Source: Candidatus Magasanikbacteria bacterium GW2011_GWC2_37_14
GTDB lineage: Bacteria > Patescibacteriota > Patescibacteriia > Magasanikbacterales > UBA922
Assembly (NCBI GenBank): GCA_000990355.1
Contig: LBSX01000008.1
Coordinates: 40,316-104,315, forward strand
Length of the DNA stretch: 64,000 nt
Direction: 5' to 3'
The notes under the pieces are model-generated. The model did no database searches. It worked only from the letters and a program-made list of their open reading frames with translations, and had not been told where the DNA came from. The position numbers were made by a program, and so were the translations under genes. Below, piece after piece: positions 11,890-30,660 of this stretch. Numbering within the stretch: position 1 is the stretch's first letter; each line of letters starts with the position of its first letter.

Positions 11890-11975
11890 GAGTAACTAGC
11901 CACAAGGGTGTCATTCCTGCGAAGGCAGGAATCTAGAAAATTGAAAAAATAAAATCCCGATTTAATCGGGATTTT

Positions 11976-12200
11976 TTATTCAACTTTGATTATTTTATTT
12001 TTGCTCGTTAAGCCTCTAATTATTTTAATTTTAGTTTTGGGAATTTTCCACTCAGAACTTAAAAATTTTATTAATTCTTCATTGGCCTTGCCATCAATTG
12101 GTGGGGCTTTTAGTTTTATTTTTATGGTACCGTCGCTTAATTCACCAACAATTTCATTTTTACTAGCTCGAGGAGTGATTTTTAGTTTGAAAGTGGTCAT
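11976..12200 (-). CDS. DUF167/YggU family protein (UPF0235)
   Basis: MTTFKLKITPRASKNEIVG...LKAPPIDGKANEELIKFLS matches the YggU family. The ORF-track N-terminus (12201-12284) is repeat-encoded, so the start was moved to Met29. Confidence 0.65.
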   Translation of the reverse strand: MTTFKLKITPRASKNEIVGELSDGTIKIKLKAPPIDGKANEELIKFLSSEWKIPKTKIKIIRGLTSKNKIIKVE

Positions 12201-12204
12201 AAAG

Positions 12205-12295
12205 TGTTTTCCTCCCCTTGGAAAGGGGAGGACAGGAGGGGTTGATTGTATTACTGTCAACCACCCCTCCCCCCTCCTTTCCAAGGAGGGGAAAC
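12205..12295. repeat. Family A GC-rich palindromic repeats (two inverted units)
   Basis: cctccccttggaaaggggagg ... cccctcccccctcctttccaaggagggg. Confidence 0.8.
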
Positions 12296-12303
12296 CAGAT
12301 TTG

Positions 12304-14580: not shown

Positions 14581-14684
14581 ATTGTTTAATTTAAGAATAA
14601 GTTCGCTTATTATGAGTGATTTTTAAGATTTTGTCAAGGTCTTGTTTTTAGAAAATAAAGTAATAATGTGGTATAATAAAATAG

Positions 14685-16469
14685 ATGAAAAATAAAAGTT
14701 TTCTAGGTTTTAGTTTAATAGAAGTCATGGTAGGCGTGGCTGTTTTTTCGTTAATCTTTGTGGGTATTTATTCGGGAGTGCAGTTAGTTTTTAAAGTTGT
14801 TTATCAATCACGTTTGCGAATTTTGGAAACTGGAGTATTAAATGAACAAGTAGAAATAATTCGTAATCTTCCTTTTGCTGATGTGGGTATTGTAAATGGT
14901 AGTCCAAGTGGGGTATTGGTGCGTACTGTTACAAGTACGCGCAATAATATTGATTTTTTGGTTACGCGTACAATTCGCAATATTGATGATTCTTTTGATG
15001 GATTAATTGGTGGAGTACCAAATGATACAGCACCAGCGGATTATAAATTAGTAGAAGTAGAAGTAACTTGTCCAAGTTGTGGACAAAGAGAACCAGCAAG
15101 ACTTTCTACTTATATTGCTCCAAAAAATTTAGAAGGTAATTTAAATCACGGAGCTTTGTTTGTAGAAGTCTTTGATTCCGAAGCTGAGCCCGTGCAAGGA
15201 GCTACAGTGCACATTGTGGCCACCTCTACCAATCCTCAATTAGATATGACCGATGTTACTGATAACGAAGGAATGCTCCGAATTGTAGATTTGGCTACAG
15301 GCACTGCTGCTTATGCAATTACTGTAAGCAAGGATGGTTATACTAGTGAACAAACAATGTTGCCAAGTGTTAGTGTGCCTAATCCAGTTAAATTGCCAAT
15401 TTCTGTAGCTGTCCAAATAGTAACAGAAATTAGTTTTTCTATTGATTTGGTTTCTTCATTGCAAATTCAAACTTTAAATAGTGTTTGTAGTGCTCTGGGC
15501 AGTGTGGGTTTAAGTGTTCTTGGCACCAAAGTAATTGGCATTGAACCAGACGTTTTAAAGGTTAATCAAAATATTACTACCAATGGTTCGGGAATTTATA
15601 ACTTAACAAATCTGGAATGGGACAATTATGGTTTAAAGCCTAGTGCTTATGATTTGGTTGGTTCTATTCCAGCCACACCAATAAATTTGTCCGCTGGAGT
15701 AGATCAACCAGTACAATTAATATTGGGGGCCAACACAGCCAATTCACTATTGGTGCAAGTAAAAGACAGTGTAACCGATCAGCCAGTTTCTGGTGCTCAG
15801 GTAAAAATTAGTAAAACTGGTTATGAACAAACAAAAATTACTGGTGTGGGTTATGTTCGTCAAACAGATTGGTCGGGTGGTACTGGTCAATTAAACATGA
15901 GTGACGAATCAAAATATTGGTCTGATGATGGAAAATTAGAAATTAATAGTCCGGCAGGTGATTTAAAACTTAGAGAATTAGGACAGTCCTATGTTTCGAG
16001 TGGTTATCTTGAATCATCTATTTTTGATTTGGGTACATTGGTAAATTTTGTGGATTTAATTTTTGAACCCTTGTCCCAACCAGCAGAAACTGGGGCAGAT
16101 TCTTTACATTTTCAAGTGGCAGTAAGTACTACTTCTACCCCCGTAAGCTGGAATTATCTTGGGCCAGATAATACTTCGGCTACTTATTATAATTCTACAA
16201 ATTATTCTTTAAATAATTTGCCAAACAACCAGCGTTATTTTCGTTATAAAGTATTTTTGCAAACTGTCGATAATAACTATACACCAATTCTTTCTGATTT
16301 AAATATTACTTATATTACTGCCTGCACTCCGCCTGGCCAAACTTATTTTGGTAATTTGTTGGCCGAAACTTATACGGTAGAAGTTAGCGCTAATGGTTAT
16401 CAAACAACTACCCAAACAGTAACTTTGAGTGGAGATGTAATTATGGGTATAGAATTAGCTGCTTCTTAA
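14685..16469 (+). CDS. Large type IV pilin-like protein (prepilin N-terminal cleavage/methylation motif)
   Basis: N-terminus KSFLGFSLIEVMVGVAV (G/FSLIE class III signal). The rest is beta-rich, probably adhesin or carboxypeptidase-regulatory-like. Confidence 0.65.
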   Translation: MKNKSFLGFSLIEVMVGVAVFSLIFVGIYSGVQLVFKVVYQSRLRILETGVLNEQVEIIRNLPFADVGIVNGSPSGVLVRTVTSTRNNIDFLVTRTIRNIDDSFDGLIGGVPNDTAPADYKLVEVEVTCPSCGQREPARLSTYIAPKNLEGNLNHGALFVEVFDSEAEPVQGATVHIVATSTNPQLDMTDVTDNEGMLRIVDLATGTAAYAITVSKDGYTSEQTMLPSVSVPNPVKLPISVAVQIVTEISFSIDLVSSLQIQTLNSVCSALGSVGLSVLGTKVIGIEPDVLKVNQNITTNGSGIYNLTNLEWDNYGLKPSAYDLVGSIPATPINLSAGVDQPVQLILGANTANSLLVQVKDSVTDQPVSGAQVKISKTGYEQTKITGVGYVRQTDWSGGTGQLNMSDESKYWSDDGKLEINSPAGDLKLRELGQSYVSSGYLESSIFDLGTLVNFVDLIFEPLSQPAETGADSLHFQVAVSTTSTPVSWNYLGPDNTSATYYNSTNYSLNNLPNNQRYFRYKVFLQTVDNNYTPILSDLNITYITACTPPGQTYFGNLLAETYTVEVSANGYQTTTQTVTLSGDVIMGIELAAS

Positions 16470-16518
16470 TTTTTATCCCCCTCTTCCCAAGAGAGGGCAG
16501 GGGGAGTTGCCGAAGCTT

Positions 16519-17160
16519 ATGATTAAAATAAAAAATAAAAAAGGCCTTGCCCTGTATCGTTCTGGTTCAGGGTTTACACTTCTAGAATTACTTGTTGCTA
16601 TGGGAATTTTTACTTTAATTTCCGGAGCTGTAACTTATTTAATTACCGATGGTTTGCGTTATAGTCGAATTATTTGGGACCAACTAGAAGGACAAAGTGA
16701 AGTGCGTAAAGTTTTGTCCGAAGTAGTAAATGATGTGCGCCGGGCCGAAACTTCTTCTACCGGCGCTTACCCAATAGAAAGTGCTTCCAAATATAGTTTG
16801 GTTTTTTATGCCAATATAGATGTCGACAGTTTTAGAGAAAAAGTACGTTATTATTTAGAAGGTACAAATTTAAAAAAAGGCGTAACCAAACCGAGTGGCA
16901 GCCCATTGATTTATAATTCGGGCAATGAAAAAATTGTGATTTTGGCACATAATGTCATAAATATTTCTAAAAATCAGCCAGTGTTTAGTTTTTATGCCGA
17001 AAGTTATCAAGGTACTGGTAATGCTTTGAGCGAACCAATCACCACTACAGACGTGCATGTAGTGCGAGTGCAATTAGAAATTGAACGTGATGCCAACAAA
17101 AGTCCAGTGCCAATTCGTGGTGAATCACTTACTCAAATTAGAAATTTAAAAACGAATTGA
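16519..17160 (+). CDS. Type IV pilin / pseudopilin-like protein
   Basis: N-terminus GSGFTLLELLVAMGIF (prepilin peptidase site). Start set to the ATG at 16519. Confidence 0.65.
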   Translation: MIKIKNKKGLALYRSGSGFTLLELLVAMGIFTLISGAVTYLITDGLRYSRIIWDQLEGQSEVRKVLSEVVNDVRRAETSSTGAYPIESASKYSLVFYANIDVDSFREKVRYYLEGTNLKKGVTKPSGSPLIYNSGNEKIVILAHNVINISKNQPVFSFYAESYQGTGNALSEPITTTDVHVVRVQLEIERDANKSPVPIRGESLTQIRNLKTN

Positions 17161-17161
17161 T

Positions 17162-18493
17162 ATGAAACAAAAGCGTGGCAGCATTTTAATGTTTAGTTTG
17201 GTGTTTGGTGCAATTGCCAGCTTAATTTTGATTACCGGTGTGGGTAGTTATGCTTTGTTTGAAAATAAAGCTTCCAATAAAAAATTAGATCGTGATTTAG
17301 CTTTTCATATTGCCGAAGCAGGAATTAATTATTATCGTTGGCATTTGGCGCATAACCAAACCGATTATACCGATGGTACAGGCCAGGCTGGTCCTTATGT
17401 ACATGAGTATAATGACATGAATGGAAATTTAATTGGTTATTTTTCTTTGGCTATTACTCCTCCGCTGGCTGGTAGCACAGTGGTAAAAGTAGAATCAACA
17501 GGTTGGGCTTTGACCTCACCAAATTCTCAACGCACAATTCGGATTCGTATGGGTGCTCCTTCGGTTACCAATTATACCTTTTTGTCTCATGCTGGGTTAT
17601 CTTTTAGTTTTACTACTGTGGTTCATGGGCAAGTACATGCCAATGGTGAAATTCGTTTTGACGCCGAAACTGATTCTTGGGTTAAGAGTGGTATAAGAGT
17701 ACAAGGTGGTGGACATCCAAAATCTTTTTGGGTTTATCCTGTTCCCACCATTGATTTTTACTCTGTAACTTCTGATTTAAAAGCAATCAAAGATTTGTCC
17801 GATGCCGGAGGAATTCATTTAACTTCTTCGGGAAAAGAAGGCTACCAAATAGTTTTTAATGGTAGTTCTTTTGCTTTGTATAAAGTAAATACCAAAGATT
17901 GCTATAATGGTGAAGGTCGTTGGCGCAAACGTTGGGGTGATTGGTATTGGGAAGGCACTACTTATTGTTTTGATGTAGGTACACACAGTTTTGTAAATAA
18001 TTATAATATACCGTCCAATGGAGCAATTTTTGTAGAAGATAATGTGTGGGTAGAGGGTACTGTAGATGGGCGAGTAACAATTGGTGTGGGTAAATTCCCA
18101 GTAAAATCTCCTTATAAAAATATTATTATTAATAATAATTTACGTTATACGGCGCAAGGAGGAGATGATGTAATTGGCTTAATGTCTCAGGGAGATATTG
18201 TAGTGCCTTTTGAAGTGCCAGATAACATGTATATTGACGCAGCTTTGCTTTCGCAATTTGGAAAAAATTACCGGCCATATTATGATGAAAATTTAAAAAC
18301 CAGTTTAACAATCAATGGTTCGCAAATGGCTTATGAGGGTGGTGGTTGGAAATATGTAAATGGTCTTGGCCATGTTATTTCTGGTTTTCATGATACTTAT
18401 CATAATTACGATGGTAATTTGCGTTATTACCCACCACCCGGGTTTCCCGTCGGCACCACTTATGAATTAATTAGTTGGGAAGAAGTGGAGTAG
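17162..18493 (+). CDS. PilX-like minor pilin / pilus assembly protein
   Basis: N-terminal KQKRGSILMFSLVFGAIASLILITGV hydrophobic segment typical of the PilX N-terminus. Translationally coupled to the upstream pilin gene. Confidence 0.5.
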   Translation: MKQKRGSILMFSLVFGAIASLILITGVGSYALFENKASNKKLDRDLAFHIAEAGINYYRWHLAHNQTDYTDGTGQAGPYVHEYNDMNGNLIGYFSLAITPPLAGSTVVKVESTGWALTSPNSQRTIRIRMGAPSVTNYTFLSHAGLSFSFTTVVHGQVHANGEIRFDAETDSWVKSGIRVQGGGHPKSFWVYPVPTIDFYSVTSDLKAIKDLSDAGGIHLTSSGKEGYQIVFNGSSFALYKVNTKDCYNGEGRWRKRWGDWYWEGTTYCFDVGTHSFVNNYNIPSNGAIFVEDNVWVEGTVDGRVTIGVGKFPVKSPYKNIIINNNLRYTAQGGDDVIGLMSQGDIVVPFEVPDNMYIDAALLSQFGKNYRPYYDENLKTSLTINGSQMAYEGGGWKYVNGLGHVISGFHDTYHNYDGNLRYYPPPGFPVGTTYELISWEEVE

Positions 18494-18899: not shown

Positions 18900-18976
18900 T
18901 TTTGCTATTTGCTATCTGTTAATTGTTATCTGAAAAAATTGGTTTTTAAAAAAGATTTCTGTTATAATATAGTCGT

Positions 18977-19837
18977 ATGAAAAATTCGACAGTTGTTCGT
19001 AAAGGAGTAATCGTGGCCGCGGGTTTGGGTACTCGTTTTTTGCCAGCCACCAAAGCCGTACCAAAAGAATTATTACCAGTTTTAGACAAACCAGTTATTC
19101 AGTATTTGGTAGAAGAAATGGCAAATAGTGGTATTACGGAAATTATTTTGGTAATTAACAAACAAAAAACTGCGATTATTGAACATTTTAAACGCGATAA
19201 AAATTTGGAAAATTTATTAAAAAAAGCTAATAAATATTCAGCCATTGAACCGCTGGTAAATTTAATTAAAAAAGTTAAATTTACTTATGTTTACCAAAAT
19301 CAACCTTTGGGTAATGGTCAGGCCTTGCTTTGTGCCAAAAAAGCTGTGGGCAATGTTCCTTTTGCTTTTTCTGATGGTGATTCAATAATTGATAGTGAAG
19401 AACCAGCCATTGGTCAGGTAATTAAAGCTTTTAAAAAAGTAAATAGTTCTATAATCGGCGTACAAAAAATAAAAGATAAACAAGCCATGACCAAGTATGG
19501 GAATGTTTATGTAGAGACGCATAATAATGCGTCTGTACCAAAAGTCTATAAAGTCCAAAAGATTGTGGAAAAACCAAGTGTTGCTGATGTGTCACCCGAG
19601 GGCTTAATTATTGGTGGAATGCGTTACGTGTTTACTTCAGAAATTTGGTCATATTTAGAAAAAACCAAAAAAGGTAAAGGTGGAGAAATTTGGGTGGCCG
19701 ATGCGGCCAATGATTTGGCCAAGCAAGGAAATTTTTTTGCTTATGAATATAAGGGCAAGTATTTTGATACTGGCAACAAAGAAGCCATGTTAAAAACTAC
19801 GGAACATTTTTATTTAAAACATTGTTATGAAAAGTAA
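18977..19837 (+). CDS. galU: UTP--glucose-1-phosphate uridylyltransferase
   Basis: N-terminal AAGLGTRFLPATKAVPKELLPV nucleotidyltransferase motif. Confidence 0.88.
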   Translation: MKNSTVVRKGVIVAAGLGTRFLPATKAVPKELLPVLDKPVIQYLVEEMANSGITEIILVINKQKTAIIEHFKRDKNLENLLKKANKYSAIEPLVNLIKKVKFTYVYQNQPLGNGQALLCAKKAVGNVPFAFSDGDSIIDSEEPAIGQVIKAFKKVNSSIIGVQKIKDKQAMTKYGNVYVETHNNASVPKVYKVQKIVEKPSVADVSPEGLIIGGMRYVFTSEIWSYLEKTKKGKGGEIWVADAANDLAKQGNFFAYEYKGKYFDTGNKEAMLKTTEHFYLKHCYEK

Positions 19838-20543
19838 ATTAATAGTTTTTTTAGCAATTTTGGCTTGGTTTTTACCCAGCAGTGTTTTGGCTAGCACTTT
19901 TTATTGTGCTTGCAAAGATGCCGAAACTGCTTATCGTCCTTGTAAAACTTTAACTGCTACTACTTTGGCTGGTGCAGAATTGGAATGTAAAGGCATGGAA
20001 GGGAATTTAGGTTGTGATGCTACTGGAGTGAGTTACCCAGACGGAGCTACTTGTCAGGAAATTAATGAGGGATATCAGGATTTTATTAATATGGTTGTTG
20101 GGGCAAATTATCCTACGCCCAAAGAATGTAAAAGTGGTGAACAACAACAGACCTGGAAGCAGTGCATTCTTGATGCACTTAAAGAGGCTGGTAAAAGTAC
20201 ATTAAGTGCTATAGATGTAGAAAATTGTACAGGGTTGTCTTGTTATGAAGCGCCAGTAGATAGTCCAGTGGTTGGTTTAGAAGGAAAAATAAAAGATTTA
20301 AATCAAATTGGCACTACTGATGCCAATAAAATGATTGGCCGGATTATTAAAGCTATAATGGGTTTAATGGGTACTGTGTCTTTGATTTTATTTGTTTATG
20401 GTGGAGTGTTGTGGATGACTGCAGCCGGGAATAGTGAACGCGCTGGTGAAGCTAGGAAAATACTTATTTGGACTTCTTTGGGTATGATGGTGATTTTGGG
20501 AAGTTATGGAATAGTAGATTTTATATTCAAAGCTTTCGAATAA
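19827..20543 (+). CDS. Secreted Cys-rich protein with a C-terminal TrbC/VirB2-like (T4SS-type pilin) two-helix hydrophobic domain; paralog 1 of 11
   Basis: Signal peptide, then about 130 aa with 12 Cys, then the conserved domain IGRIIKAIMGLMGTVSLILFVYGGVLWMTAAGNSERAGEARKILIWTSLGMMVILGSYGIVDFI. Confidence 0.6.
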   Translation: MKSKLIVFLAILAWFLPSSVLASTFYCACKDAETAYRPCKTLTATTLAGAELECKGMEGNLGCDATGVSYPDGATCQEINEGYQDFINMVVGANYPTPKECKSGEQQQTWKQCILDALKEAGKSTLSAIDVENCTGLSCYEAPVDSPVVGLEGKIKDLNQIGTTDANKMIGRIIKAIMGLMGTVSLILFVYGGVLWMTAAGNSERAGEARKILIWTSLGMMVILGSYGIVDFIFKAFE

Positions 20544-20650
20544 TAAATTTACAATTTACATTTTCCAATTTACAATAAATTTTCAATTTTACAATTGTAA
20601 ATTGTTAATTTGTTGAAAATTGTGAATTGATAATTGAAAATTAAATTTTT

Positions 20651-22024
20651 ATGTATAGAAAATTAATCACTCTTTCACTCTCAGTACTCGTTTTGCTCGT
20701 ACTTGGTTTTGGTTGTAAAGGTCTAAGTGCCACCGAACAAGCAGCTATTAAGCCTGTGTCTTTGGATTACTGGACAGTTTACAATGATGTAGATACTTTA
20801 AATAAATTTGCCACAGAATTTAAGCAAAAATATCCTTATGTAACAATCAATATTCGCCAAGTGCGCGAAGACCAATTTGCTAGTCTACTAACCAATGCTT
20901 TGGCCGATGATGTAGCGCCAGATATTATTTCTATAAGTAATCGTGAATTGCGTAAATATCAAGATCGGCTTATAGAAATGCCCAAGAGTGCTAGTTTGTC
21001 TACTATTACAGTTACGGGTAAATATTTTAAAAATACAGTAATTGGGTCCGAGACCATTACTTTGCCGACTGCTTTGGGAATAAAAACCAGTTTTGTAGAT
21101 ACCGTATACAATGATGTAGTTTTGGCAGGGAAAATTTTTGCACTACCCTTGGCCGTAGATAATATGGCGATTTATTACAACAAAGATTTATTGGACAAAG
21201 CTGGTATTCCCGAACCACCCAAAACTTGGGATGAGTTTATGGAAGATGTTAAAAAAATAACGATTTTTAATAAAGATGGTAGTATTATTCAATCTGGGGT
21301 GGCACTTGGCACGGGCAATAATATTACTCGGGCTTTTGACATTTTGTCGCTCCTCATGATGCAAAGCGGGGTGGTAATGGCTCGGGGCCAGGCAGTTACT
21401 TTTGCCGACGGGGTAGAACAAGCTGGTGTGCGCCATCCAGCTTTGGCTGCTTTGCGTTTTTATACAGATTTTGCCAGAAGTGATAAAGAAGTTTATACTT
21501 GGAATGAAAAAATGAAAGGCGATTTGCAGAATTTTATTAGTGGCAAAAGCGCTTTTTATTTGGGTTTTGCTTATGATTACAAACGAATCAAAAACAGTGC
21601 TCCCCAATTAAATTTGGAAATTATTCCCATGTTGCAATTAAGTGAAAACAAGCCCGCCAATGTGGCTAATTATTGGCTAGAAGGGGTAACCAAAAAATCC
21701 CGGCACAAAAACGAAGCTTGGGGCTTTTTGGGTTTTATTACTACTCCCGAAAAAATTAAAGAATATACCAAAGCTGCTCGCTACCCTACACCTTTGCGGG
21801 CGCAAATAAACGAACAAAAAAAAGATCCTGTACTTAGCCCATTTGTGGCGCAAACTCTACAAGCCGAAAATTGGTATCGGGGCAAAGATGGCGCGGGAGT
21901 GGAAAAAGCTTTTAAAAGCTTAATTACTAATTATTTAAAACCTTATGCGAGTGAAGAAGAGGCTACTGCGCGTGATATTAATTTGTTAAAATATACTAGT
22001 GAATTAGTACAACAGACGATGTAG
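20651..22024 (+). CDS. ABC transporter extracellular solute-binding lipoprotein (family 1, sugar/maltodextrin-type)
   Basis: Lipobox LGFGC, and family-1 SBP architecture over 457 aa. Sits inside the pilin-like array. Confidence 0.7.
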   Translation: MYRKLITLSLSVLVLLVLGFGCKGLSATEQAAIKPVSLDYWTVYNDVDTLNKFATEFKQKYPYVTINIRQVREDQFASLLTNALADDVAPDIISISNRELRKYQDRLIEMPKSASLSTITVTGKYFKNTVIGSETITLPTALGIKTSFVDTVYNDVVLAGKIFALPLAVDNMAIYYNKDLLDKAGIPEPPKTWDEFMEDVKKITIFNKDGSIIQSGVALGTGNNITRAFDILSLLMMQSGVVMARGQAVTFADGVEQAGVRHPALAALRFYTDFARSDKEVYTWNEKMKGDLQNFISGKSAFYLGFAYDYKRIKNSAPQLNLEIIPMLQLSENKPANVANYWLEGVTKKSRHKNEAWGFLGFITTPEKIKEYTKAARYPTPLRAQINEQKKDPVLSPFVAQTLQAENWYRGKDGAGVEKAFKSLITNYLKPYASEEEATARDINLLKYTSELVQQTM

Positions 22025-22079
22025 TTGTTAGAGGAATTAGAGGTTTTAGTTATTAGTAAATGAATTAAAATTTAAAGAT

Positions 22080-23213
22080 ATGCCAAAAAATAAATTTCTC
22101 CTTATCTTTTCTATAATATTTTTAGTGAGTTTGTTTTTTGGTTTAAAAGAGGTTGAGGCAGTGGATTATCAATGCTGTGTGTTTACCCATGGCGGGATAT
22201 CGGAATGTGCTTTGGATGATCCTTGTCCAGCAACTAAACAAGTAGTTGTTGGTTCGGAAGAAACAGGTATGAGTGGTTATAAAACGGTTACAGAAAATGC
22301 CATTGGCAAAGCACAATCTTGTACTGATGTTGATATTTGTTTAAAACCAGCTTTTGAAGTAACTTGGACTGATGGACCAAAACAAGAGTTAACAGTAGGT
22401 GAAGTAATTAAAGCACAAACTGAAGCAAAAGTAATTTTTAGGCGTACAAGTCAACCAGTTGATGTTGTTTTGTCTTGTACTAATTGTGATGTGGAGGTGA
22501 CAACAGTTTTGGTTACTGGTAATATCATTCAGTTTACTTTGGATACAGGAAAATTTTTAAATAAGAATAAAGGTATAAACCCTTATTATGAAATAGTTGC
22601 CAAGTTAAATGATAAAGAATTAGGTAGACATACTTTAAATTTAGAATTAAAAAGGTTTGAATGTAAAAATTATAAACCACCTTGTACAGATAATTCGCAG
22701 TGTTTCCCTTTTGGGGCTGATTGCTTTTCTAAAATAGATGATACAATTTGCAGAAAATTGGACTCTCGACCAGATTTGTGTGGTCAGCAGGCAGATGGTC
22801 CTACTCTTGGTAGCACTGCTTGTTTTTGGGATGCTACGACAAAACAATGTAAAACTGGTATGGAAAAGGGTATTAGTAACAAGTATCCGGTGCCCGATGG
22901 TTATGCCGAGGGTGGCGGAGTTTTGCCTCCTTGTGCTTTTTCGGGATCTTGTCGTAAAGTAAATGATTTATTGGAATTAATTATAAATTTGGGTAGGGCA
23001 AATTTTGGTATTATTGGTACTTTTGCTTTTGTATTTTTTATTTATGGTGGTTTTACCATGATTACCTCTTTTGGCAGTGCCGAAAAAGTTAAAAAGGGCC
23101 GGGATATTTTGTTGGCAGCCGTGGTCGGTATGATTATTGCTTTTTCTGCTTATTTATTAATTAATTTTATAATAAGTGCTTTGGGAGTAGCAGATAGTTT
23201 TAAAGTAATATGA
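22080..23213 (+). CDS. Secreted Cys-rich protein with a C-terminal TrbC/VirB2-like domain; paralog 2
   Basis: Signal peptide, about 290 aa with more than 20 Cys, then GRANFGIIGTFAFVFFIYGGFTMITSFGSAEKVKKGRDILLAAVVGMIIAFSAYLLINFI. Confidence 0.6.
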   Translation: MPKNKFLLIFSIIFLVSLFFGLKEVEAVDYQCCVFTHGGISECALDDPCPATKQVVVGSEETGMSGYKTVTENAIGKAQSCTDVDICLKPAFEVTWTDGPKQELTVGEVIKAQTEAKVIFRRTSQPVDVVLSCTNCDVEVTTVLVTGNIIQFTLDTGKFLNKNKGINPYYEIVAKLNDKELGRHTLNLELKRFECKNYKPPCTDNSQCFPFGADCFSKIDDTICRKLDSRPDLCGQQADGPTLGSTACFWDATTKQCKTGMEKGISNKYPVPDGYAEGGGVLPPCAFSGSCRKVNDLLELIINLGRANFGIIGTFAFVFFIYGGFTMITSFGSAEKVKKGRDILLAAVVGMIIAFSAYLLINFIISALGVADSFKVI

Positions 23214-23845
23214 AAAAAATTATCCTAACAATTTTATTAGCAATAATTTTTTCTTTGCCAATGTGGATTGCCCCGGTTTTTGCTGTGGATGATCCTAGCA
23301 GTGAAACAGTTAAGTTGGATAATCCGTTGGGAGAGAGAAATGATATGCGGCAAATTTTGGGGCAGATTATTGATTATTCTATGGGTATTATGGGAGCGAT
23401 TACTCTCTTGGTTTTTGTGTTTGGGGGCGGTATGTGGCTAACTTCTATGGGTAATGCGGAAAAGGTAAAAACTGGCACTCAAGCCATGATTTGGGCAGCA
23501 ATTGGACTGTTTATTATTTTTGGCAGTTATGCTATACTGAACCTAGTAATAAAAGGTTTAACTGGTGGAGTTGCGAGTACTAGTTTACAAGTACCAAGCA
23601 GTGAAGAAAAAAATCCAGAAACTAGTTGTGTTTCTCCAAGTTTCTGTAACACGGCTGATAACTATTGTGGGTGTACAGCAGATTGTGCCAAAGACGATAA
23701 ACTTTGTTTTACCAATTGTGGAGAGATGTGCACAAATTTTTCTGGAGCGTGCGCTACAGATGAAGAAAAAAAGGGCTTGTTTGTAACTTGTGTGGTTGCC
23801 TCTGGTGGGGGAGAATTGGATTGCAAACAAACTATTTGTGAATAA
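23210..23845 (+). CDS. TrbC/VirB2-like domain protein with a C-terminal Cys-rich module; paralog 3, domain order inverted
   Basis: Signal peptide, then MRQILGQIIDYSMGIMGAITLLVFVFGGGMWLTSMGNAEKVKTGTQAMIWAAIGLFIIFGSYAILNLV, then an 80-aa tail with 14 Cys. Confidence 0.6.
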   Translation: MKKIILTILLAIIFSLPMWIAPVFAVDDPSSETVKLDNPLGERNDMRQILGQIIDYSMGIMGAITLLVFVFGGGMWLTSMGNAEKVKTGTQAMIWAAIGLFIIFGSYAILNLVIKGLTGGVASTSLQVPSSEEKNPETSCVSPSFCNTADNYCGCTADCAKDDKLCFTNCGEMCTNFSGACATDEEKKGLFVTCVVASGGGELDCKQTICE

Positions 23846-23912
23846 TAAAAGGTTTAACAGGTAAATAATTATTACGTATGAAGGTATTTCAACAAAGGAA
23901 GGGGGTGAAAAC

Positions 23913-24431
23913 ATGATTAAATTAATGAAAGCTTTAAATAATAAATTAGTAGTATTAGCTGTAGTAACTTTGGCTTTTGGTTTATTGCTTTTGCCAGGTT
24001 TAGCTTATGCAGAGATTGATGCTGCCTGTGCCGATGATACTGAATGTGACGCGGGTGAAATTTGTGGAGTAGATGAAACTTGCGTGGCCGACCCTTCTAC
24101 CTCAGGTTCAGACGCCAAAGACCCATTTGGAATAAATTATGGTGCTAAAACTGGTTTAGGTTCCAGAGATATTCGCGATACCATTGGTAGCATTATTAAT
24201 GTAGCTTTGGGTTTACTCGGCATTGTGGCCGTAGTAATCGTCTTGGCTGGTGGTTTTAAATGGATGACCTCTGGTGGTAATGAAGAAAAATCTACCGAAG
24301 CTCGCAAATTGATTTTTGCTGGTATTATTGGTTTGGCAATTATTTTGTCTGCCTATGCAATTTCTAGATTTGTCTTAACACAATTGTATACCGCAACAAG
24401 TACAAGTGGTACAGCTACCTATGGAGTATAA
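23913..24431 (+). CDS. TrbC/VirB2-like pilin-family protein; paralog 4
   Basis: Signal peptide, a short Cys/acidic segment, then IRDTIGSIINVALGLLGIVAVVIVLAGGFKWMTSGGNEEKSTEARKLIFAGIIGLAIILSAYAISRFV. Confidence 0.6.
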   Translation: MIKLMKALNNKLVVLAVVTLAFGLLLLPGLAYAEIDAACADDTECDAGEICGVDETCVADPSTSGSDAKDPFGINYGAKTGLGSRDIRDTIGSIINVALGLLGIVAVVIVLAGGFKWMTSGGNEEKSTEARKLIFAGIIGLAIILSAYAISRFVLTQLYTATSTSGTATYGV

Positions 24432-24559
24432 GTAGCATTTACATAGTCTCTTAAGTTAGGAGAAAATATAATGTTAACAAAAGGAATTATTACCCCCGAC
24501 AGATTGTCGGGGGTAATAATGGCCTTGATTGTAGGTTGTTATTTGTTATCAAGCTGTCA

Positions 24560-24645
24560 TTCCTTAGCGTCATTCCCGCGCAGGCGGGAATCTTACACTA
24601 GTTAAAAAGATTCCCGCCTGCGCGGGAATGACGCACGAAGAAAGG
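24560..24645. repeat. Family B palindromic repeat pair (GTCATTCCCGCGCAGGCGGGAAT ... ATTCCCGCCTGCGCGGGAATGACGC)
   Basis: Two inverted copies. Relatives occur at 4930, 8566, 11905, 52068 and 62226. Confidence 0.8.
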
Positions 24646-24693
24646 TGGCAATGACAAATTGATACTGAGTAATAAATTACAATAATTATATAT

Positions 24694-25095
24694 ATGAAAA
24701 AAGCATTTTTATTTTTAAGTCTAATGTTTGTTTTGTTATTTGGATTTTTTTGCACTTTTAAACCAGTTTTGGCACAAGGTCCTTATTTAGGTTTGGAATA
24801 TGGAGCCGACACTGGACTTTCTACCAAAGACATTCGTTTTACTACCGCCAGAATTATCAATACGGTGCTTGGCCTTTTGGGCATGGTTTCGGTAGTAATT
24901 ATTATTTATGCTGGTTTTAAATGGATGACTGCCGGTGGTAATGAAGAAAATGCCACTTCGGCCAGAAAAATTTTATTTTCGGCAGTAATCGGTTTGGTAA
25001 TAATTCTTAGTGCTTATTCTATTGCTCGTTATGTAAATACTAGTTTATACAAAGCGACTACTGGCTATGACTATGAGTCAATGATTATTGAATAG
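24694..25095 (+). CDS. TrbC/VirB2-like pilin-family protein; paralog 5
   Basis: IRFTTARIINTVLGLLGMVSVVIIIYAGFKWMTAGGNEENATSARKILFSAVIGLVIILSAYSIARYV. Confidence 0.6.
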   Translation: MKKAFLFLSLMFVLLFGFFCTFKPVLAQGPYLGLEYGADTGLSTKDIRFTTARIINTVLGLLGMVSVVIIIYAGFKWMTAGGNEENATSARKILFSAVIGLVIILSAYSIARYVNTSLYKATTGYDYESMIIE

Positions 25096-25100
25096 TATAT

Positions 25101-25622
25101 ATGAAAAAAATATTATTTTTATTAGTTGGTTTGGTAATAGTTTTTTCTCCAGTTTTGGCAATGGCGGAAGATTCTTATGGTTTGGAAACAACGGCTGGAG
25201 CTGCCAAATTAAAAAGTGATAAAGATTTGCCCACTTTGGTTGGTAATGTGGCTGGTACTGCACTTTCTTTGGTAGGTGTAATATTTTTTGCTTTAATGAT
25301 TTATGCTGGTTTTTTGTGGATGACTGCCCAAGGTAAAGAAGAACAAGCCAAAAAAGCTTTGGACACAATTATTGCCTGTATTATTGGTTTAATAATCATT
25401 TTGGCCGCTTATGCGATTACTAGATTTATTTTTAATAGTGCGGGGGTGGGAGGAAGTGGTACAGTGCCTCAAGAAAAACAGTGTGATGCTACATCTGTTG
25501 CTTCGTGTAAATCTAAACCTGAGAGTACTACAGCTTGTACTGAAACAGCAGGTGGGGTAACTACTAATGGGTTTTGTCATTTTGTAAACCCACAGTCAAA
25601 GAGTTGTAGTTGTGGAAATTAG
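25101..25622 (+). CDS. TrbC/VirB2-like pilin-family protein with a C-terminal Cys-rich tail; paralog 6
   Basis: Conserved domain LVGNVAGTALSLVGVIFFALMIYAGFLWMTAQGKEEQAKKALDTIIACIIGLIIILAAYAITRFI, then a 9-Cys tail. Confidence 0.6.
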   Translation: MKKILFLLVGLVIVFSPVLAMAEDSYGLETTAGAAKLKSDKDLPTLVGNVAGTALSLVGVIFFALMIYAGFLWMTAQGKEEQAKKALDTIIACIIGLIIILAAYAITRFIFNSAGVGGSGTVPQEKQCDATSVASCKSKPESTTACTETAGGVTTNGFCHFVNPQSKSCSCGN

Positions 25623-25632
25623 AATATTTATT

Positions 25633-26340
25633 ATGTTTTTTGGTTATAAAAAAATAATTTTAATTTTAGCAGTATTTTTGAATATATTTTTTTTTGGAAA
25701 CCAAGCTTTGGCAGCTTACACTTTTGATGACACTGGCCTGATGCTTGGTAAAGCCGCGGAGCCAACAGGAATGTTGGATACCAAAGTCACTGGGTCTTTG
25801 CCAGTAGTTTTGGGTTTTTGGGCCACAGTAGCATTTTCATTAGTAAGCATTGTCTTTTTTATTTTAATGTTTTATGCTGGTTTTTTGTGGATGACAGCGC
25901 GTGGTTCGGAAGAAGTGGTAACCAAAGCCAAGGGCATAATTACTATGGCCATAATTGGTTTGTTTGTACTCGTAGCCTCGTATGCAATTACCACCTTTAT
26001 TACTAGCAGTTTAGTTCCTGGTGTGGCTGGTAATAAAGCCGCTGGTACTGGTAATTTGGAAGTTGGGCCAAATAATCCCGAAGGTTGTTGTGTGGATTGG
26101 GTAGCCACCGATAGTCAGTGGTTTGGCGCAGTTGGTACCTTAAAAAAAGATAATGACGGTGGTTTTGTGGGAGTAAGTGCTTGCCGGATAACTACAAAGT
26201 CTGATTGTGAATTACAAGGTACAACAGAAACGGAAAGTGATGTGTTGGCTGGCCCCGAAGGTGTTGGTTATTGGGTATTTGATGAAGCTATAAAAGAAAA
26301 AGAGGCTTGTCAAAGTGCTTATTGTAAATTAGCAAATTAA
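25633..26340 (+). CDS. TrbC/VirB2-like pilin-family protein with a C-terminal Cys-rich domain; paralog 7
   Basis: Start moved to the ATG at 25633 because the track start is a GTG. Conserved domain, then a roughly 110-aa tail with 7 Cys. Confidence 0.55.
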   Translation: MFFGYKKIILILAVFLNIFFFGNQALAAYTFDDTGLMLGKAAEPTGMLDTKVTGSLPVVLGFWATVAFSLVSIVFFILMFYAGFLWMTARGSEEVVTKAKGIITMAIIGLFVLVASYAITTFITSSLVPGVAGNKAAGTGNLEVGPNNPEGCCVDWVATDSQWFGAVGTLKKDNDGGFVGVSACRITTKSDCELQGTTETESDVLAGPEGVGYWVFDEAIKEKEACQSAYCKLAN

Positions 26341-26349
26341 TAAAAAATT

Positions 26350-26715
26350 ATGAAAAAAATATTTATAACTCTGGCATTATTTACAATTTTGTTAACACCA
26401 GTTTTTGTTTTTTCTGCCAATACTGGTTTGGGTGCCTTAACAAAAAATTTAAGTGATACTGGCAAAGCCGCAGAAATAAGTGAAACTGGTACTTTGCAAG
26501 ATATTGTTGGTACAGGAATTGGAGCGGCCCTTACTTTGGTTGGATTAATTTTTATGATTTTAATGGTTTATGGTGGATATTTGTGGATGGTTGCGAGAGG
26601 TGCCGAAGAAATGATCACCAAGGCCAAGGGAATTATTACTGCTGCGATTATCGGTTTGGTAGTAGTAATTAGCGCCTATGCCATAACAGTATTTATTACA
26701 GGTAGGTTTCAGTAA
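26350..26715 (+). CDS. TrbC/VirB2-like pilin-family protein; paralog 8 (minimal form)
   Basis: Signal peptide plus a short linker plus the conserved domain only (121 aa). Confidence 0.6.
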   Translation: MKKIFITLALFTILLTPVFVFSANTGLGALTKNLSDTGKAAEISETGTLQDIVGTGIGAALTLVGLIFMILMVYGGYLWMVARGAEEMITKAKGIITAAIIGLVVVISAYAITVFITGRFQ

Positions 26716-26735
26716 TTAGTTTTATTTTAAATGAT

Positions 26736-27122
26736 ATGAATATAAAGAAAATAATTTTAATAGCCATCTTTAGTTTATTATTGTGTACCCCAGTATTGGC
26801 GAAATTAAATTTGGGCACAGGAATTGCTGGGCAGGCGGCGGTAAAAGCTGGTTATGAAGGAAATACTAGTGAAATAACTTTTTCGCAAAATATTGGTACA
26901 GTAATTAATGCCGCACTTTCGCTAGTGGGTGTAATATTTTTGGTTTTAATGGTTTATGCGGGATATTTGTGGATGACAGCACGTGGTTCGGAAGAAGAAA
27001 TTACCAAAGCCAAAGGAATTATTATTGCGGCCATGATTGGTTTAATTTTGGTGGTAGGTGCTTATAGTATTACTACTTTTGTGGTACCACGTATTTTGGC
27101 TAGTGGCGTCAAAACTCCCTAA
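26736..27122 (+). CDS. TrbC/VirB2-like pilin-family protein; paralog 9
   Basis: IGTVINAALSLVGVIFLVLMVYAGYLWMTARGSEEEITKAKGIIIAAMIGLILVVGAYSITTFV. About 75% identical to paralog 7 within this domain. Confidence 0.6.
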   Translation: MNIKKIILIAIFSLLLCTPVLAKLNLGTGIAGQAAVKAGYEGNTSEITFSQNIGTVINAALSLVGVIFLVLMVYAGYLWMTARGSEEEITKAKGIIIAAMIGLILVVGAYSITTFVVPRILASGVKTP

Positions 27123-27123
27123 T

Positions 27124-27531
27124 ATGAAAAAAATTGTTTTGTTAATAATTTTATTTGTTAGTCTAGGGTTATTCCCTTTGGCCTTGCAGGCTCAAGTAAA
27201 TAAAACTACGGGTGAAAAAATTATGGGGCAAGTAGGTGCTAGTGCCGAAAAGGCCGAAATTGGGGCGCCAGCAGATTTTAGAGTAGTTGTTACCAGAACC
27301 ATAAAAACTCTTCTTGAGACAGTTGGTGCAGTATTTATTATTTTAATAGTTTATGGCGGTTATACTTTTATTACTGCTGAGGGCGAAGAAGAAAAAGTAA
27401 CCAAAGGTTTAAATATAATCAAGCCAGCAATTATTGGTTTAATAATCATTTTGGCGGCTTATGGTATTACTTTGTATGTGGGCATACGGTTTACCCAAGC
27501 AGTAACTGAAGGGGCCACAATAATGCGTTAA
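27124..27531 (+). CDS. TrbC/VirB2-like pilin-family protein; paralog 10
   Basis: Start moved to the ATG at 27124 (MKKIVLLIIL). Conserved domain is present. Confidence 0.55.
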   Translation: MKKIVLLIILFVSLGLFPLALQAQVNKTTGEKIMGQVGASAEKAEIGAPADFRVVVTRTIKTLLETVGAVFIILIVYGGYTFITAEGEEEKVTKGLNIIKPAIIGLIIILAAYGITLYVGIRFTQAVTEGATIMR

Positions 27532-27536
27532 AATTT

Positions 27537-28046
27537 ATGAAAAAGTTCTTATATCTTATTTTGCTAGCCGTTTTTTTAAGTGGTTTATTTACTTTTGTCC
27601 AAGTTAAGGCAGCTGATTATCGTGCTGATACCATGAATCAACTTTCCGCTACCGCTGGTGCCAATGGAGCCAACTATGGCACAGCGCGTGATCCACGAGC
27701 AATTGTGGCCCAAGTAATAAAAATTTTTTTGGGTACAGTAGGAATATTGTTTGTGGCTTACACGGTTTATGCTGGGTTTATAATACTAACTTCTGGTGGT
27801 AATGAAGAAAAAGTTGGAAAAGCCAAAAAAATGATTTTTTATGCGACCATAGGTATTATAATTACTCTCTCTGCTTATGGGATAGTTTTGTTTGTACAAA
27901 GATATTTTGTAGGAGATACTGGCGGTTTAAATGGCAGTGCTAGTTATGGGCCGTGGTATGTAGAAGGAAGTTTAAACGTGGATGAGAGTAATAGTCAATT
28001 TTATTCTCCAGATCCCTTGGAACAAGATACACTTATTTATCACTAA
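27537..28046 (+). CDS. TrbC/VirB2-like pilin-family protein; paralog 11
   Basis: VAQVIKIFLGTVGILFVAYTVYAGFIILTSGGNEEKVGKAKKMIFYATIGIIITLSAYGIVLFV, followed by a terminator hairpin (catccgcctcatcggcggatg plus T-run). Confidence 0.6.
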   Translation: MKKFLYLILLAVFLSGLFTFVQVKAADYRADTMNQLSATAGANGANYGTARDPRAIVAQVIKIFLGTVGILFVAYTVYAGFIILTSGGNEEKVGKAKKMIFYATIGIIITLSAYGIVLFVQRYFVGDTGGLNGSASYGPWYVEGSLNVDESNSQFYSPDPLEQDTLIYH

Positions 28047-28107
28047 TAATAAAAATAAAACATCCGCCTCATCGGCGGATGTTTTTTAATTTCTAGAGAT
28101 ACAAAGG

Positions 28108-28180
28108 GGTGGCCAACGAGAATTGAACTCGTATTGTCGGTTCCACAAACCGAAGTAATAACCATTATACCATGGCCACC
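28108..28180 (-). tRNA. tRNA-His (anticodon GTG) with an encoded G-1
   Basis: Hand-folded: acceptor GTGGCCA/TGGCCAC, anticodon stem TCGGT/ACCGA with loop TTGTGGA, T-arm ACGAG-TTCAATT-CTCGT, and an extra 5' G characteristic of tRNA-His. No encoded CCA. Confidence 0.8.
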
Positions 28181-28245
28181 ACTCTATATCCCTAACACAG
28201 AGCAGATGGTAGCCATTATATTTGAAAAACGTCTTTTTGTCAACT

Positions 28246-28983
28246 TTATTTGTCGCCAATCTTTTCAAAAGCCCGTAAAACTTCTAGTGGTATAGCAAAA
28301 ATTACTGTGTTTGATTGATCCGAAGAAATGTCGTTGATAGAGTTGAGAGTACGTAAATGCAGGGCTCCGGGAGCAGCAGAAAGCATAGTAGCCGCTTTGG
28401 CCAAATTTTCGGCAGCAATTACTTCACCACCAGACTTAATAATTACGGCTCGGCGTTCACGTTCGGCCTCTGCTTGTTTGGCAATTACGCGTTGCATGTC
28501 TTCGGGTAATTGAATATCTTTTAATTCTACACTTTCTACTTTTATACCCCAGTTTTCAGTAGCCCCATCAACAATAATTTTGATTTTTTCGGCTGCAGAT
28601 TCACGATTAGCCAGAAGTTCGTCCAATTCCATTTGGCCAATTACATTTCTCATGGTGGTTTGGGCCAATTGCGACACGGCGTACCAAAAATTTTCTACTT
28701 CCAAAGTGGCTTTGGCCACATCGCTTACTTTGTAATAAATTACTGCATTAACTTTGGCCGAAACATTATCTTTGGTAATGGCTTCTTGGAGTGGTACATC
28801 CACGGCTTTAATACGAATGTCGACTTTGGTTAAACTTTGAATAACAGGGAAGACCAAGCGCCAGCCGGGTTCAACAATTTTGGTAAATTTACCAAGTTGA
28901 AATTTTACCCCGCGCTGGTATTGGTTTACTTGGCGGATGCTAATGAAGATTAGCACTAGTACTAAGATTGCTAGTTGCCACAT
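28246..28983 (-). CDS. SPFH/band-7 (stomatin/HflK-like) membrane protein
   Basis: N-terminal TM, then the SPFH domain pattern (QYQRGVKFQLGKF ... VDIRIKAVDVP ... AVIYYKV), then a coiled-coil C-terminus. Confidence 0.8.
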   Translation of the reverse strand: MWQLAILVLVLIFISIRQVNQYQRGVKFQLGKFTKIVEPGWRLVFPVIQSLTKVDIRIKAVDVPLQEAITKDNVSAKVNAVIYYKVSDVAKATLEVENFWYAVSQLAQTTMRNVIGQMELDELLANRESAAEKIKIIVDGATENWGIKVESVELKDIQLPEDMQRVIAKQAEAERERRAVIIKSGGEVIAAENLAKAATMLSAAPGALHLRTLNSINDISSDQSNTVIFAIPLEVLRAFEKIGDK

Positions 28984-29082
28984 AGAGTTTGAGTTAAGAA
29001 TTATTACTTATAGCTTAATAGTACTATCTTTTGCTTTTTTGGTCAATAAAAATCCTGTACCAGATTGGTACAGGGTTTTTTG

Positions 29083-29154
29083 TGACCCCGCTTGGAATCG
29101 AACCAAGATCTAAAGCTTAGAAGGCTTCTATTCTATCCATTGAACTACGAGGCC
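29083..29154 (-). tRNA. tRNA-Arg (anticodon TCT)
   Basis: Hand-folded: acceptor GGCCTCG/CGGGGTC with two G-U pairs, anticodon loop CTTCTAA, T-arm CTTGG-TTCGATT-CCAAG, discriminator A. Confidence 0.7.
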
Positions 29155-30182: not shown

Positions 30183-30660
30183 AGTAGTCTTTAAAATTTG
30201 CTTTATTATATTGTACGACACTATTGACCCTTCTGTCAAAATCAGGGTCAAGTTGAGCCGGGCCGAAACTTGACAAAAGGTCAATTTTGTGGTATACTAA
30301 ATACATAAAATTAACAAATATAAATTTTTTCATGCCAAAATCCTTAACAGTCGCAGATTGTTGGACATTTCAAAAATTTATATTTGTTAATTTAAAAATC
30401 ATGTAGAGCTTTTTGGGCCACGTGATAAGCAAAAACAAATACAAAAATAAATATGCAAAACCAAAATTGGGGAGCGGTCAACCCACAACAAGCCGCAGAT
30501 TCTTTGGTATATTATTATCTCTTGGCCGGTATCTCTGTTTTGGTAGCGGTTTTTTTGTTCCTACCAAAAAGTTCAACAGGGTGAAATAAAAGTACAATTT
30601 ATTTAGGAGGAAATTTTGCCACCTTGAAAGGGTGGCTTTTATGGCGTATAATATAATTAT

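Follow-up and report, generated by a model that had tools for sequence, protein, structure and literature searches.

A large array of modular T4SS_pilin-family genes near the replication origin of a Magasanikbacteria genome

We analysed a 64,000-nt stretch of DNA (the window) from Candidatus Magasanikbacteria bacterium GW2011_GWC2_37_14 (a groundwater bacterium; assembly GCA_000990355.1, class ABY1, 190-kb contig US42_C0008) and found that eleven plus-strand open reading frames (ORFs) of 121–377 amino acids (aa) fill positions 19827–28046, each encoding a type IV secretion system (T4SS) pilin-family protein (PF18895). On balance, and with moderate confidence, we favour a reading in which the products are anciently diverged PF18895 pilins that would act as subunits of a T4SS-dependent surface fibre, some forming a plain shaft and others serving as decorated minor pilins. 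VirB2-like pilin arrays of 2–11 genes have already been published for Patescibacteria (Wang 2023, PMC10633639; Quinonero-Coronel 2025, PMC12102498), and the idea of such an array, raised in a preliminary description of this DNA, is thus not new; the kind of system is already described, and the present array is an unusually large, modular example of it. The eleven genes, numbered in order and with the features predicted for each product, are as follows.

19827–20543, plus strand: pilin 1 (KKQ27547.1), 238 aa; PF18895 29.3 bits; signal peptide, N-terminal 10-Cys module, C-terminal hairpin at residues 159–237.
22080–23213, plus strand: pilin 2 (KKQ27549.1), 377 aa; PF18895 32.1 bits; 18 Cys in total.
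23210–23845, plus strand: pilin 3, 211 aa; PF18895 29.7 bits; signal peptide, hairpin, C-terminal 12-Cys module.
23913–24431, plus strand: pilin 4 (inferred to be KKQ27551.1), 172 aa; PF18895 37.9 bits, TrbC 17.1 bits; signal peptide, N-terminal C-x5-C-x5-C-x5-C, hairpin.
24694–25095, plus strand: pilin 5, 133 aa; PF18895 42.4 bits, TrbC 24.2 bits (E 3.8e-5); signal peptide and hairpin only.
25101–25622, plus strand: pilin 6 (inferred to be KKQ27553.1), 173 aa; PF18895 39.3 bits; hairpin and C-terminal 6-Cys module.
25612–26340 or 25633–26340, plus strand: pilin 7 (G0065), 242 aa from a GTG start or 235 aa from the ATG at 25633; PF18895 28.9 bits.
26350–26715, plus strand: pilin 8, 121 aa; PF18895 31.9 bits; signal peptide and hairpin only, without Cys.
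26736–27122, plus strand: pilin 9 (KKQ27556.1), 128 aa; PF18895 37.9 bits; signal peptide and hairpin only.
27124–27531, plus strand: pilin 10, 135 aa if translated from the ATG at 27124 (the mechanically called ORF begins at 27058); PF18895 34.1 bits; signal peptide and hairpin only.
27537–28046, plus strand: pilin 11, 169 aa; PF18895 30.4 bits; hairpin and a Cys-free 45-aa C-terminal tail.

A scan of all six frames of the window with a hidden Markov model (HMM) of the shared core returned exactly eleven pilin copies and no degraded copies or remnants, in agreement with the ORF list and with the eleven consecutive plus-strand paralogs first described. The array occupies the leading strand, with dnaN some 9 kb away. 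Its genes are separated by 2–108 nt or overlap within each half (pilin 3 starts 4 nt before the end of pilin 2), and, as had been noted, the run is broken in just two places, by a gene for a solute-binding protein (SBP_bac_1; 20651–22024), described earlier as a sugar-binding lipoprotein, and by a 262-nt structured spacer (24432–24693) that contains a repeat.

Membership of PF18895 is solid at the level of sequence. All eleven proteins exceed the gathering score of 26.6 bits (range 28.9–42.4 bits) and, because the independent Pfam E-values run from 1e-6 to 7e-11 for each of them, chance is excluded as the origin of the array. Identical proteins in public databases, an independent contig with 99.9% identity and homologous arrays in 80 species-level genomes, together with the Pfam support for every copy, leave a negligible probability that the array is an artefact of chance frames or mis-assembled repeats. 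Every protein also matches NCBIfam NF045849 (Mbov_0395 pilin-like conjugal transfer; best E 6.3e-9), the sole per-paralog score listed being that of pilin 1 (24.3 bits, below the curated cut-off of 40). Four match the TrbC/VirB2 family PF04956 at E < 0.1, the best being pilin 5 (24.2 bits, E 3.8e-5), and all four fall below the gathering score of 27.9 bits. The N-methylation motif of type IV pilins (PF07963) was detected in none of the eleven; of the trio of genes shortly upstream, two do match it. The original assignment to T4SS-type (VirB2/TrbC-like) rather than type IV (PilA) pilins is upheld by these results, although of the two Pfam families it named only PF18895 is reached above threshold.

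Two homologues close to pilin 7 (P0065 and P0066) match both PF18895 and PF04956, and several relatives are named 'pilin' by NCBI. Pilin 5 has a weak tblastn match (E 7e-3) on a plasmid of Pontibacillus, at a gene that bears the annotation Mbov_0395-family pilin-like and adjoins genes for a TrbL/VirB6-like protein and a CD1110-type VirB4. When an alignment of the eleven cores was compared using hhalign with four annotated VirB2/TrbC proteins (pTi, pSymA, Komagataeibacter and Acetobacter), 57 columns aligned in topological register and the W-M motif fell on the VirB2 ISWMFGR, at a probability of just 18.7% (E 1.3e-3, obtained with a shallow VirB2 alignment of Neff 1.9). The direct links to proven pilins are weak, and homology of the array pilins to classical VirB2 is no more than plausible.

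Alignment of the eleven paralogs reveals that the only parts common to all are an N-terminal signal-like segment and a core of about 80 residues with the consensus ...LGLVG..F..L.VYGGF.WMTA.G.EE..TKA..II..A.IGL.IIL.AY.I..FV. This contains the inter-helix motif YGGFxWMTAxGxEExxTKA followed by AYxI, and at five columns (G, G, E, G and Y) all eleven agree. Two hydrophobic segments flank the G-x-EE...KAK loop in every paralog. Core identity between paralogs averages 34% and reaches 62% at most (pilins 4 and 5). All eleven N-termini carry two K/R within the first eight residues, an uncharged h-region of 15–25 residues and, by a simple -3/-1 rule rather than SignalP, at least one AXA-type site at residues 20–33. 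Both the signal peptide and the two-helix hydrophobic motif that had been ascribed to each paralog are accordingly recovered in the full set. AlphaFold2 (AF2) models contain long helical hairpins with a predicted local distance difference test score (pLDDT) of about 90. In the pilin 7 model (pLDDT 74.6) the hairpin (H63-95/H100-139) is accompanied by a short additional helix and a small alpha/beta domain at the C-terminus; the hairpin helices of pilin 2 are H294-329 and H334-367.

Outside this core the paralogs had been described at the outset as completely different, and phmmer indeed detects no similarity between their variable modules. The Cys-rich modules are confined to six of the eleven, being N-terminal in pilins 1, 2 and 4 and C-terminal in pilins 3, 6 and 7, rather than present on each as had been stated. 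Pilins 1–11 contain 10, 18, 12, 4, 1, 7, 6, 0, 1, 0 and 0 Cys in total, and the six modules hold 10, 18, 12, 4, 6 and 6, so that an earlier count of 7 to more than 20 is overstated and should read 4 to 18. The lone Cys of pilin 5 and that of pilin 9 sit in the signal peptide. Pilins 5 and 8–11 are bare hairpins, pilin 11 with its Cys-free tail. Pilin 2 consists of a signal peptide, a disordered Cys-containing linker, an immunoglobulin (Ig)-like beta-sandwich (residues ~92–191) recognised within the N-terminal module by a fold search of the model, a small Cys-rich alpha/beta domain (~208–268) and the hairpin. The C-terminal 6-Cys alpha/beta module of pilin 7 (CCVDW...C...RITT..DC) gave no match below E 0.4 when the model was compared with the PDB using Foldseek.

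To place the array among its relatives, we scanned GTDB, each species represented by one genome, with a pattern built on the four closest paralogs and obtained 80 loci, mostly from Magasanikbacteria, the best of them 79% identical and none of them from the window's own genome. The core HMM identifies 733 pilin ORFs in these loci. The 24 arrays that have conserved flanking genes at either end hold 9–15 pilin genes each, and the largest related Magasanikbacteria arrays hold 15–16. An extension of at least 50 aa is present on 281 of the 733 pilins (38%), with at least 4 Cys in 259 of these 281. Among extension modules with at least 3 Cys in the window and the 80 loci, 310 of 334 (and 191 of 193 C-terminal ones) have an even number of Cys, counts that are phylogenetically non-independent; such a bias is the pattern that disulfide-bonded extracytoplasmic domains would be expected to show.

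The arrays are collinear in at least 34 related species. Across the 34 genomes with at least eleven pilins, a given window paralog k almost always finds its best match in the k-th gene, and the neighbourhood follows a shared order: three type IV pilus (T4P)-like genes, galU, pilin 1, the solute-binding protein gene, the remaining pilins, often a convergent monogalactosyldiacylglycerol (MGDG)-synthase-like glycosyltransferase gene, a Band 7 gene and a recombinase gene. Architecture is likewise tied to position, with N-terminal Cys-rich modules at positions 1–2, C-terminal ones at 6–7, none at 5 and 8–11, and position 3 variable. Orthologous cores are 53–86% identical in the closest species, compared with the paralog mean of 34%, and many pairs from more distant species are just 30–45% identical; the core of pilin 4 is the most conserved of the eleven (74–86% identity to its orthologues). 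Because orthology follows position and, in the closest species, orthologue identity exceeds the paralog mean, we conclude that the array is old and that each member has been individually retained. The modules behave differently: against the closest species they are 16–33% identical with many gaps, whereas the hairpins are 53–86% identical. Counterparts are recognisable for the modules of pilins 2, 7, 4 and 11 in 24, 19, 20 and 7 loci respectively, and essentially none is detectable for those of pilins 1, 3 and 6 across the 80 loci. By these comparisons, divergence is far quicker in the ectodomains than in the hairpin.

These patterns bear on whether the array is a variation repertoire, that is, a set of interchangeable versions of one pilin of which one or a few would be expressed at a time to alter antigenicity or host range. 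The same suggestion has been made for other Patescibacteria arrays after the VirB2 paralogs of Bartonella and Anaplasma phagocytophilum, which also lie side by side and for which a role at the host interface is proposed (PMC12102498). The strong divergence of the paralogs, their mutually dissimilar ectodomains and the quick turnover of those ectodomains between species, to the point that three modules lack essentially any detectable counterpart, are all in keeping with it. The conserved features are not, since all eleven paralogs have orthologues at the matching position in 34 species (the copies are older than the speciation events and every one has been kept), the type of architecture is fixed by position, a core identity of at most 62% betrays no recent duplication or gene conversion, and the tight spacing, overlaps and presence of only two terminators suggest co-transcription. 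The array of Ca. Southlakia epibionticum is reported to be essential as a whole (PMC10633639, PMC12857230), which argues weakly in the same direction. Antigenic-variation sets consist of recent, interchangeable copies without one-to-one orthologues; unlike those of Bartonella and Anaplasma, the Magasanikbacteria paralogs are ancient, positionally orthologous and different in domain architecture. Gene-for-gene conservation across species thus favours non-redundant subunits, and we regard a variation repertoire as improbable. The 'hypervariable repertoire' of the preliminary description fails for the array as a whole, with its gene order kept in 34 species and its old paralogs. The cell-surface or adhesin role that it proposed is plausible, given modules with a predicted extracytoplasmic location, even Cys counts, fast evolution and, in one case, an Ig-like fold.

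Arrays of this kind were surveyed in 3,035 Patescibacteria genomes, with a mean paralog identity of 25%, T4SS genes often near dnaA and a pilin gene near virB4 in 1135 of the 1948 assemblies holding both VirB4 and a VirB2-like pilin (Microb Genom, PMC12102498). The present array counts as such under that survey's definition of at least two tandem pilin genes (one non-pilin gap allowed) plus VirB4, the presence of VirB4 being taken from its Tables S1 and S3. It resembles the published arrays in belonging to the same PF18895 family and the same phylum, in lying near dnaA, in the lack of a recognisable conjugation module and in low paralog identity (25% on average there, 34% for the cores here). 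It differs in coming from class ABY1, the published arrays being reported as most abundant in Microgenomatia and Saccharimonadia, and its eleven genes equal the published maximum. Neither the collinearity by position nor the N- and C-terminal Cys-rich and Ig-like ectodomains are mentioned in PMC10633639 or PMC12102498. The VirB2 rows given for GCA_000990355.1 are KKQ27551.1 (pilin 4 by consecutive numbering), KKQ27553.1 (pilin 6) and KKQ27636.1, which lies outside the window (PMC12102498 Table S3). The survey therefore caught two of the eleven array genes, through the MPF-T VirB2 profile only and not through PF18895. Its low count is possibly due to the older model PF18895.3, and pilin arrays of ABY1 may be systematically under-counted there.

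The same table places a T4SS elsewhere in this genome, with TrsD (KKQ27996) adjoining VirB4 (KKQ27997) at coding sequences (CDS) 801–802 and further rows for VirB1, two VirB4-like proteins and matches of the type IV coupling protein (T4CP) kind (PMC12102498 Table S3). The array corresponds to CDS 457–468, about 335 genes from the TrsD/VirB4 pair. In this it differs from the essential series of predicted pilins in Ca. S. epibionticum, which is encoded within the T4SS cluster (Wang et al. 2023, Cell, PMC10633639; PMC12857230).

We propose that each product would be exported by Sec and its signal peptide probably cut at the AXA site, after which the two long hydrophobic helices would insert as a hairpin with the short acidic/basic loop (G-x-EE-x3-KAK) in the cytoplasm and both termini outside. 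Modules could then stand on either terminus and be Cys-rich with even counts, because the hairpin topology puts both ends outside, whether or not the signal is cut. In F and T pili both pilin termini are on the outer surface and the inter-helix loop is in the lumen, and polymerisation of the same type would place the modules on the surface or tip of the fibre. Pilins 5 and 8–11 are candidate shaft subunits, proposed as such because a large module fits more plausibly on a sparse, minor subunit; the six paralogs with ectodomains are candidate minor, surface-decorating or tip subunits that would contact the host cell. The membrane pool would most likely be polymerised by the distant TrsD+VirB4 T4SS into a surface fibre for an epibiotic lifestyle. 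With low confidence, pilin 4 may be a major subunit, since it combines a strong Shine-Dalgarno sequence with the most conserved core. A more specific form of this proposal, a heteropolymeric modular T4SS pilus in which 9–16 positionally conserved VirB2-like pilins co-assemble and several carry built-in disulfide-bonded adhesin domains of Ig-like and other folds on the outward terminus, is possible but doubtful.

Several observations weigh against a T4SS-dependent fibre. VirB4, VirB6, VirB8, VirB11, VirD4 and relaxase domains are absent from the sizeable ORFs of the window as annotated with Pfam, and no T4SS component was found within 10 kb of the 80 related arrays, where a search of the large unassigned ORFs for T4SS ATPases returned only PilB-type T2SSE, FtsH, glycosyltransferases, PBP1A and similar proteins. 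The likeness to proven pilins is weak, as the PF04956 scores remain below their gathering threshold and the hhalign probability against bona fide VirB2 is 18.7%. Fold searches returned no T4SS pilin, the hairpin part matching generic helical hairpins only, and the signal peptides were called by rule. We know of no solved conjugative pilus in which a VirB2-type subunit bears an ectodomain of 100–270 aa, and domains of that size could be incompatible with tight helical packing. A pilus in Patescibacteria is an 'intriguing possibility' in a 2025 review, none having yet been seen in any Patescibacterium (PMC12857230). A search of the PDB with the core profile matched designed 'Pizza' repeat proteins; these matches were rejected as spurious sums of weak repeats, leaving no real match. 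The absence of T4SS machinery nearby had been pointed out in the preliminary description and extends to the related arrays. Its conclusion that this is not a conjugation system has to be qualified in one respect, namely that the locus should not be taken as independent of a T4SS, TrsD+VirB4 being listed elsewhere in the genome by the published survey.

In an alternative reading the hairpin would be a membrane anchor that never polymerises and displays the ectodomains, singly or in small complexes, for T4SS-independent adhesion or nutrient capture with the solute-binding lipoprotein. The array is unlinked to T4SS genes in the window and in all 80 loci, 44 loci retain the solute-binding protein gene within the array, monoderm T4SSs are normally without pili (PMC12102498, PMC12857230), large ectodomains sit awkwardly in a VirB2-type helical lattice and the likeness to proven pilins is marginal. 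On the other hand, PF18895 genes lie near virB4 in other Patescibacteria classes and inside the essential T4SS cluster of S. epibionticum (PMC12102498, PMC10633639). Five of the eleven paralogs have no ectodomain and so nothing to anchor, and it is the hairpin rather than the ectodomain that is most conserved, which suggests a constrained assembly interface. We consider a non-polymerising anchor unlikely and retain the fibre as the favoured reading.

Several better-known pilin systems can be compared with the array. It shares with VirB2, TrbC and TraA (Agrobacterium T-pilus, RP4 and F pilus; PF04956) a long signal peptide, two hydrophobic helices, a short charged loop and both termini predicted to be outside the cell. 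Unlike those, it comes from a monoderm host, has no adjacent VirB5, VirB6 or VirB4 genes and adds ectodomains of 40–270 aa to six paralogs, and to our knowledge classical conjugative pilins never carry such ectodomains. All eleven proteins match NF045849, the Mbov_0395 family of Mycoplasma integrative and conjugative elements and Gram-positive conjugation clusters, and the array is a chromosomal multi-gene one, unlike the single-copy proteins found there within mobile conjugation modules. Fusion of a pilin to a binding module has a conceptual parallel in the bimodular type IV pilins PilB and PilC of Streptococcus sanguinis, which join a polymerisation module to a functional or adhesive module and thereby make the fibre the bearer of the binding domain. 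Type IV pili, however, have a class III signal peptide and an N-methylated N-terminus and belong to an unrelated superfamily with a different assembly machine, and the array pilins do not have that motif.

The remaining elements in and around the array are listed below, the three hairpin or palindromic elements without an assigned strand.

18977–19837, plus strand: GalU-like nucleotidyl transferase gene (Pfam NTP_transferase, 3e-31), the 3' end of which runs 11 nt into pilin 1.
20651–22024, plus strand: solute-binding protein gene inside the array (Pfam SBP_bac_1, 5e-27).
24486–24520: terminator-like G+C hairpin with a 16-bp stem after pilin 4, part of the spacer fold.
24567–24634: perfect palindrome with a 28-bp stem, formed by two inverted copies of a unit resembling repetitive extragenic palindromic (REP) elements, ATTCCCGCGCAGGCGGGAAT; this is the repeat noted earlier.
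24659–24686, plus strand: promoter-like site TTGATA-16-AATAAT, a consensus match only, ending 8 nt before the start of pilin 5.
28057–28085: bidirectional terminator-like hairpin closing the array.

The galU-like gene is a conserved 5' neighbour, immediately followed by the array in 42 related loci, and the placement of the solute-binding protein gene (between pilins 1 and 2 or just before the array) is shared with 44. The N-terminus of the latter protein, ...LVLGFGC, suggests a lipoprotein. The spacer between pilins 4 and 5 folds with -127 kcal/mol (z = -14.9). The promoter-like site that follows suggests a second, possibly leaderless, transcription unit, and the simplest reading, which rests solely on consensus matches, is of two units, galU-pilin 1-solute-binding protein-pilins 2, 3 and 4 and pilins 5 to 11. 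Among the array genes pilin 4 alone has a strong Shine-Dalgarno sequence, AAGGAAGGGGGTGA, and such sequences are rare in the genome. Most genes of the window likewise lack one, the exceptions including pilin 4, rnpA and a 217-aa T4P-like gene, and a TATAAT-like box stands within ~15 nt of several start codons (e.g. 14664–14684, 18956–18976 and 30640–30660), which suggests that leaderless or very-short-leader mRNAs may be widespread in the window. The 20-nt palindromic unit ATTCCCGCGCAGGCGGGAAT occurs five times (8611–8630, 11913–11932, 24572–24591, 24610–24629 and 52075–52094) against none expected. All five REP-like copies are intergenic and 3' of genes (the rnpA region, dnaN, pilin 4 and 5S rRNA).

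Pfam annotation of about 56 ORFs shows that the array is embedded among the housekeeping genes that surround the origin of replication (rnpA, dnaA at 9148, dnaN, ftsK and recA), with the cumulative GC skew reaching its minimum at 8–10 kb. Three T4P-like genes (14685–18493), a 23S-IVP-family gene and galU precede the array. The products of the trio are a 594-aa protein (14685–16469) and a 217-aa protein (16507–17160), both with N_methyl, and a 443-aa protein without a Pfam match; the 594-aa protein additionally has CarboxypepD_reg/SpaA-like domains. In many relatives the trio keeps its synteny with the array of T4SS-type pilins, such that two different pilin systems stand side by side near the origin. 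Downstream of the array are tRNA-His, a Band 7 gene, tRNA-Arg and a tyrosine recombinase gene.

The downstream edge varies. Contig L001, a 6-kb independent assembly from Logan SRR3309152, is 99.9% identical to window positions 24564–29154, and pilin 10 is called there as 135 aa too. It departs from the window at 29155, right after tRNA-Arg, where it continues (4592–6152) with rpsO, preceded by a 12th pilin of 183 aa that has a 7-Cys module at its C-terminus; past the same tRNA the window has the tyrosine recombinase gene instead. The divergence stems either from rearrangement between strains at the tRNA or from an assembly that is chimeric. The last pilin directly precedes rpsO-NYN-pnp in some related genomes, and no 12th pilin or pseudogene was found before rpsO in the window. 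That the integrase beside tRNA-Arg might mark an array-bearing island was considered and rejected, because the integrase, together with its neighbours, keeps a syntenic place in 25 related genomes. In 34 related arrays the MGDG_synth-like glycosyltransferase gene (E 3e-28) is convergent and lies 2–700 nt past the last pilin, as at 2088–3194 (minus strand) in locus L052 and 11561–12667 (minus strand) in L005, and a homologue is absent from the window. Together with galU, this gene hints at a glycolipid or sugar link.

Elsewhere in the window, positions 44209–47844 encode a fusion of HMA, DsbD_2 (a CcdA-like thiol-disulfide transporter) and cupredoxin domains beside a copper-type P-type ATPase. 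This is the sole thiol-redox membrane protein seen in the window and may be relevant to extracellular disulfide handling, although it looks more metal-related. Positions 62200–64000 have a G+C content of 54%, compared with about 37% elsewhere, and contain overlapping ORFs of 399 aa (plus strand) and 352 aa (minus strand). The plus-strand ORF has no Pfam match and the region no Rfam match at gathering thresholds; foreign DNA, or a mis-join where the window ends, could account for it. A 464-aa ORF at 39903–41297 (TTG start, G+C 44%) is mirrored by an antisense 454-aa ORF and has no Pfam match. It is followed by a LAGLIDADG_3 ORF (41476–42144), the end of which overlaps tRNA-Leu (42108–42192), the only element returned by an Rfam scan of 39–42.6 kb. 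The segment 48400–51857 holds a 23S rRNA gene of 3288 nt, compared with a model of 2925 positions (an insertion of ~360 nt), and a 5S rRNA gene; a 16S gene is found nowhere in the 64 kb, so that the rRNA operon is split.

What the array adds to PMC10633639 and PMC12102498 is its size and under-detection in ABY1, the gene-for-gene conservation and the fusions of pilins to ectodomains, including one with an Ig-like fold. The T4SS of Patescibacteria is essential in the one species tested, and the array bears on what that system moves and on its capacity to form a pilus. The pilin set of ABY1, a second large class, is larger than the survey recognised, with two of eleven listed here. The fast-evolving, putatively disulfide-rich ectodomains, which about one in three pilins of this lineage carry, are obvious candidate determinants of host recognition, and offer concrete targets for proteomics, binder design and heterologous display. 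If the modular pilus is real, it would give the first case of T4SS pilins that double as modular adhesins, their genes standing away from those of the secretion machine, and the rapid turnover of their ectodomains would track host-surface specificity.

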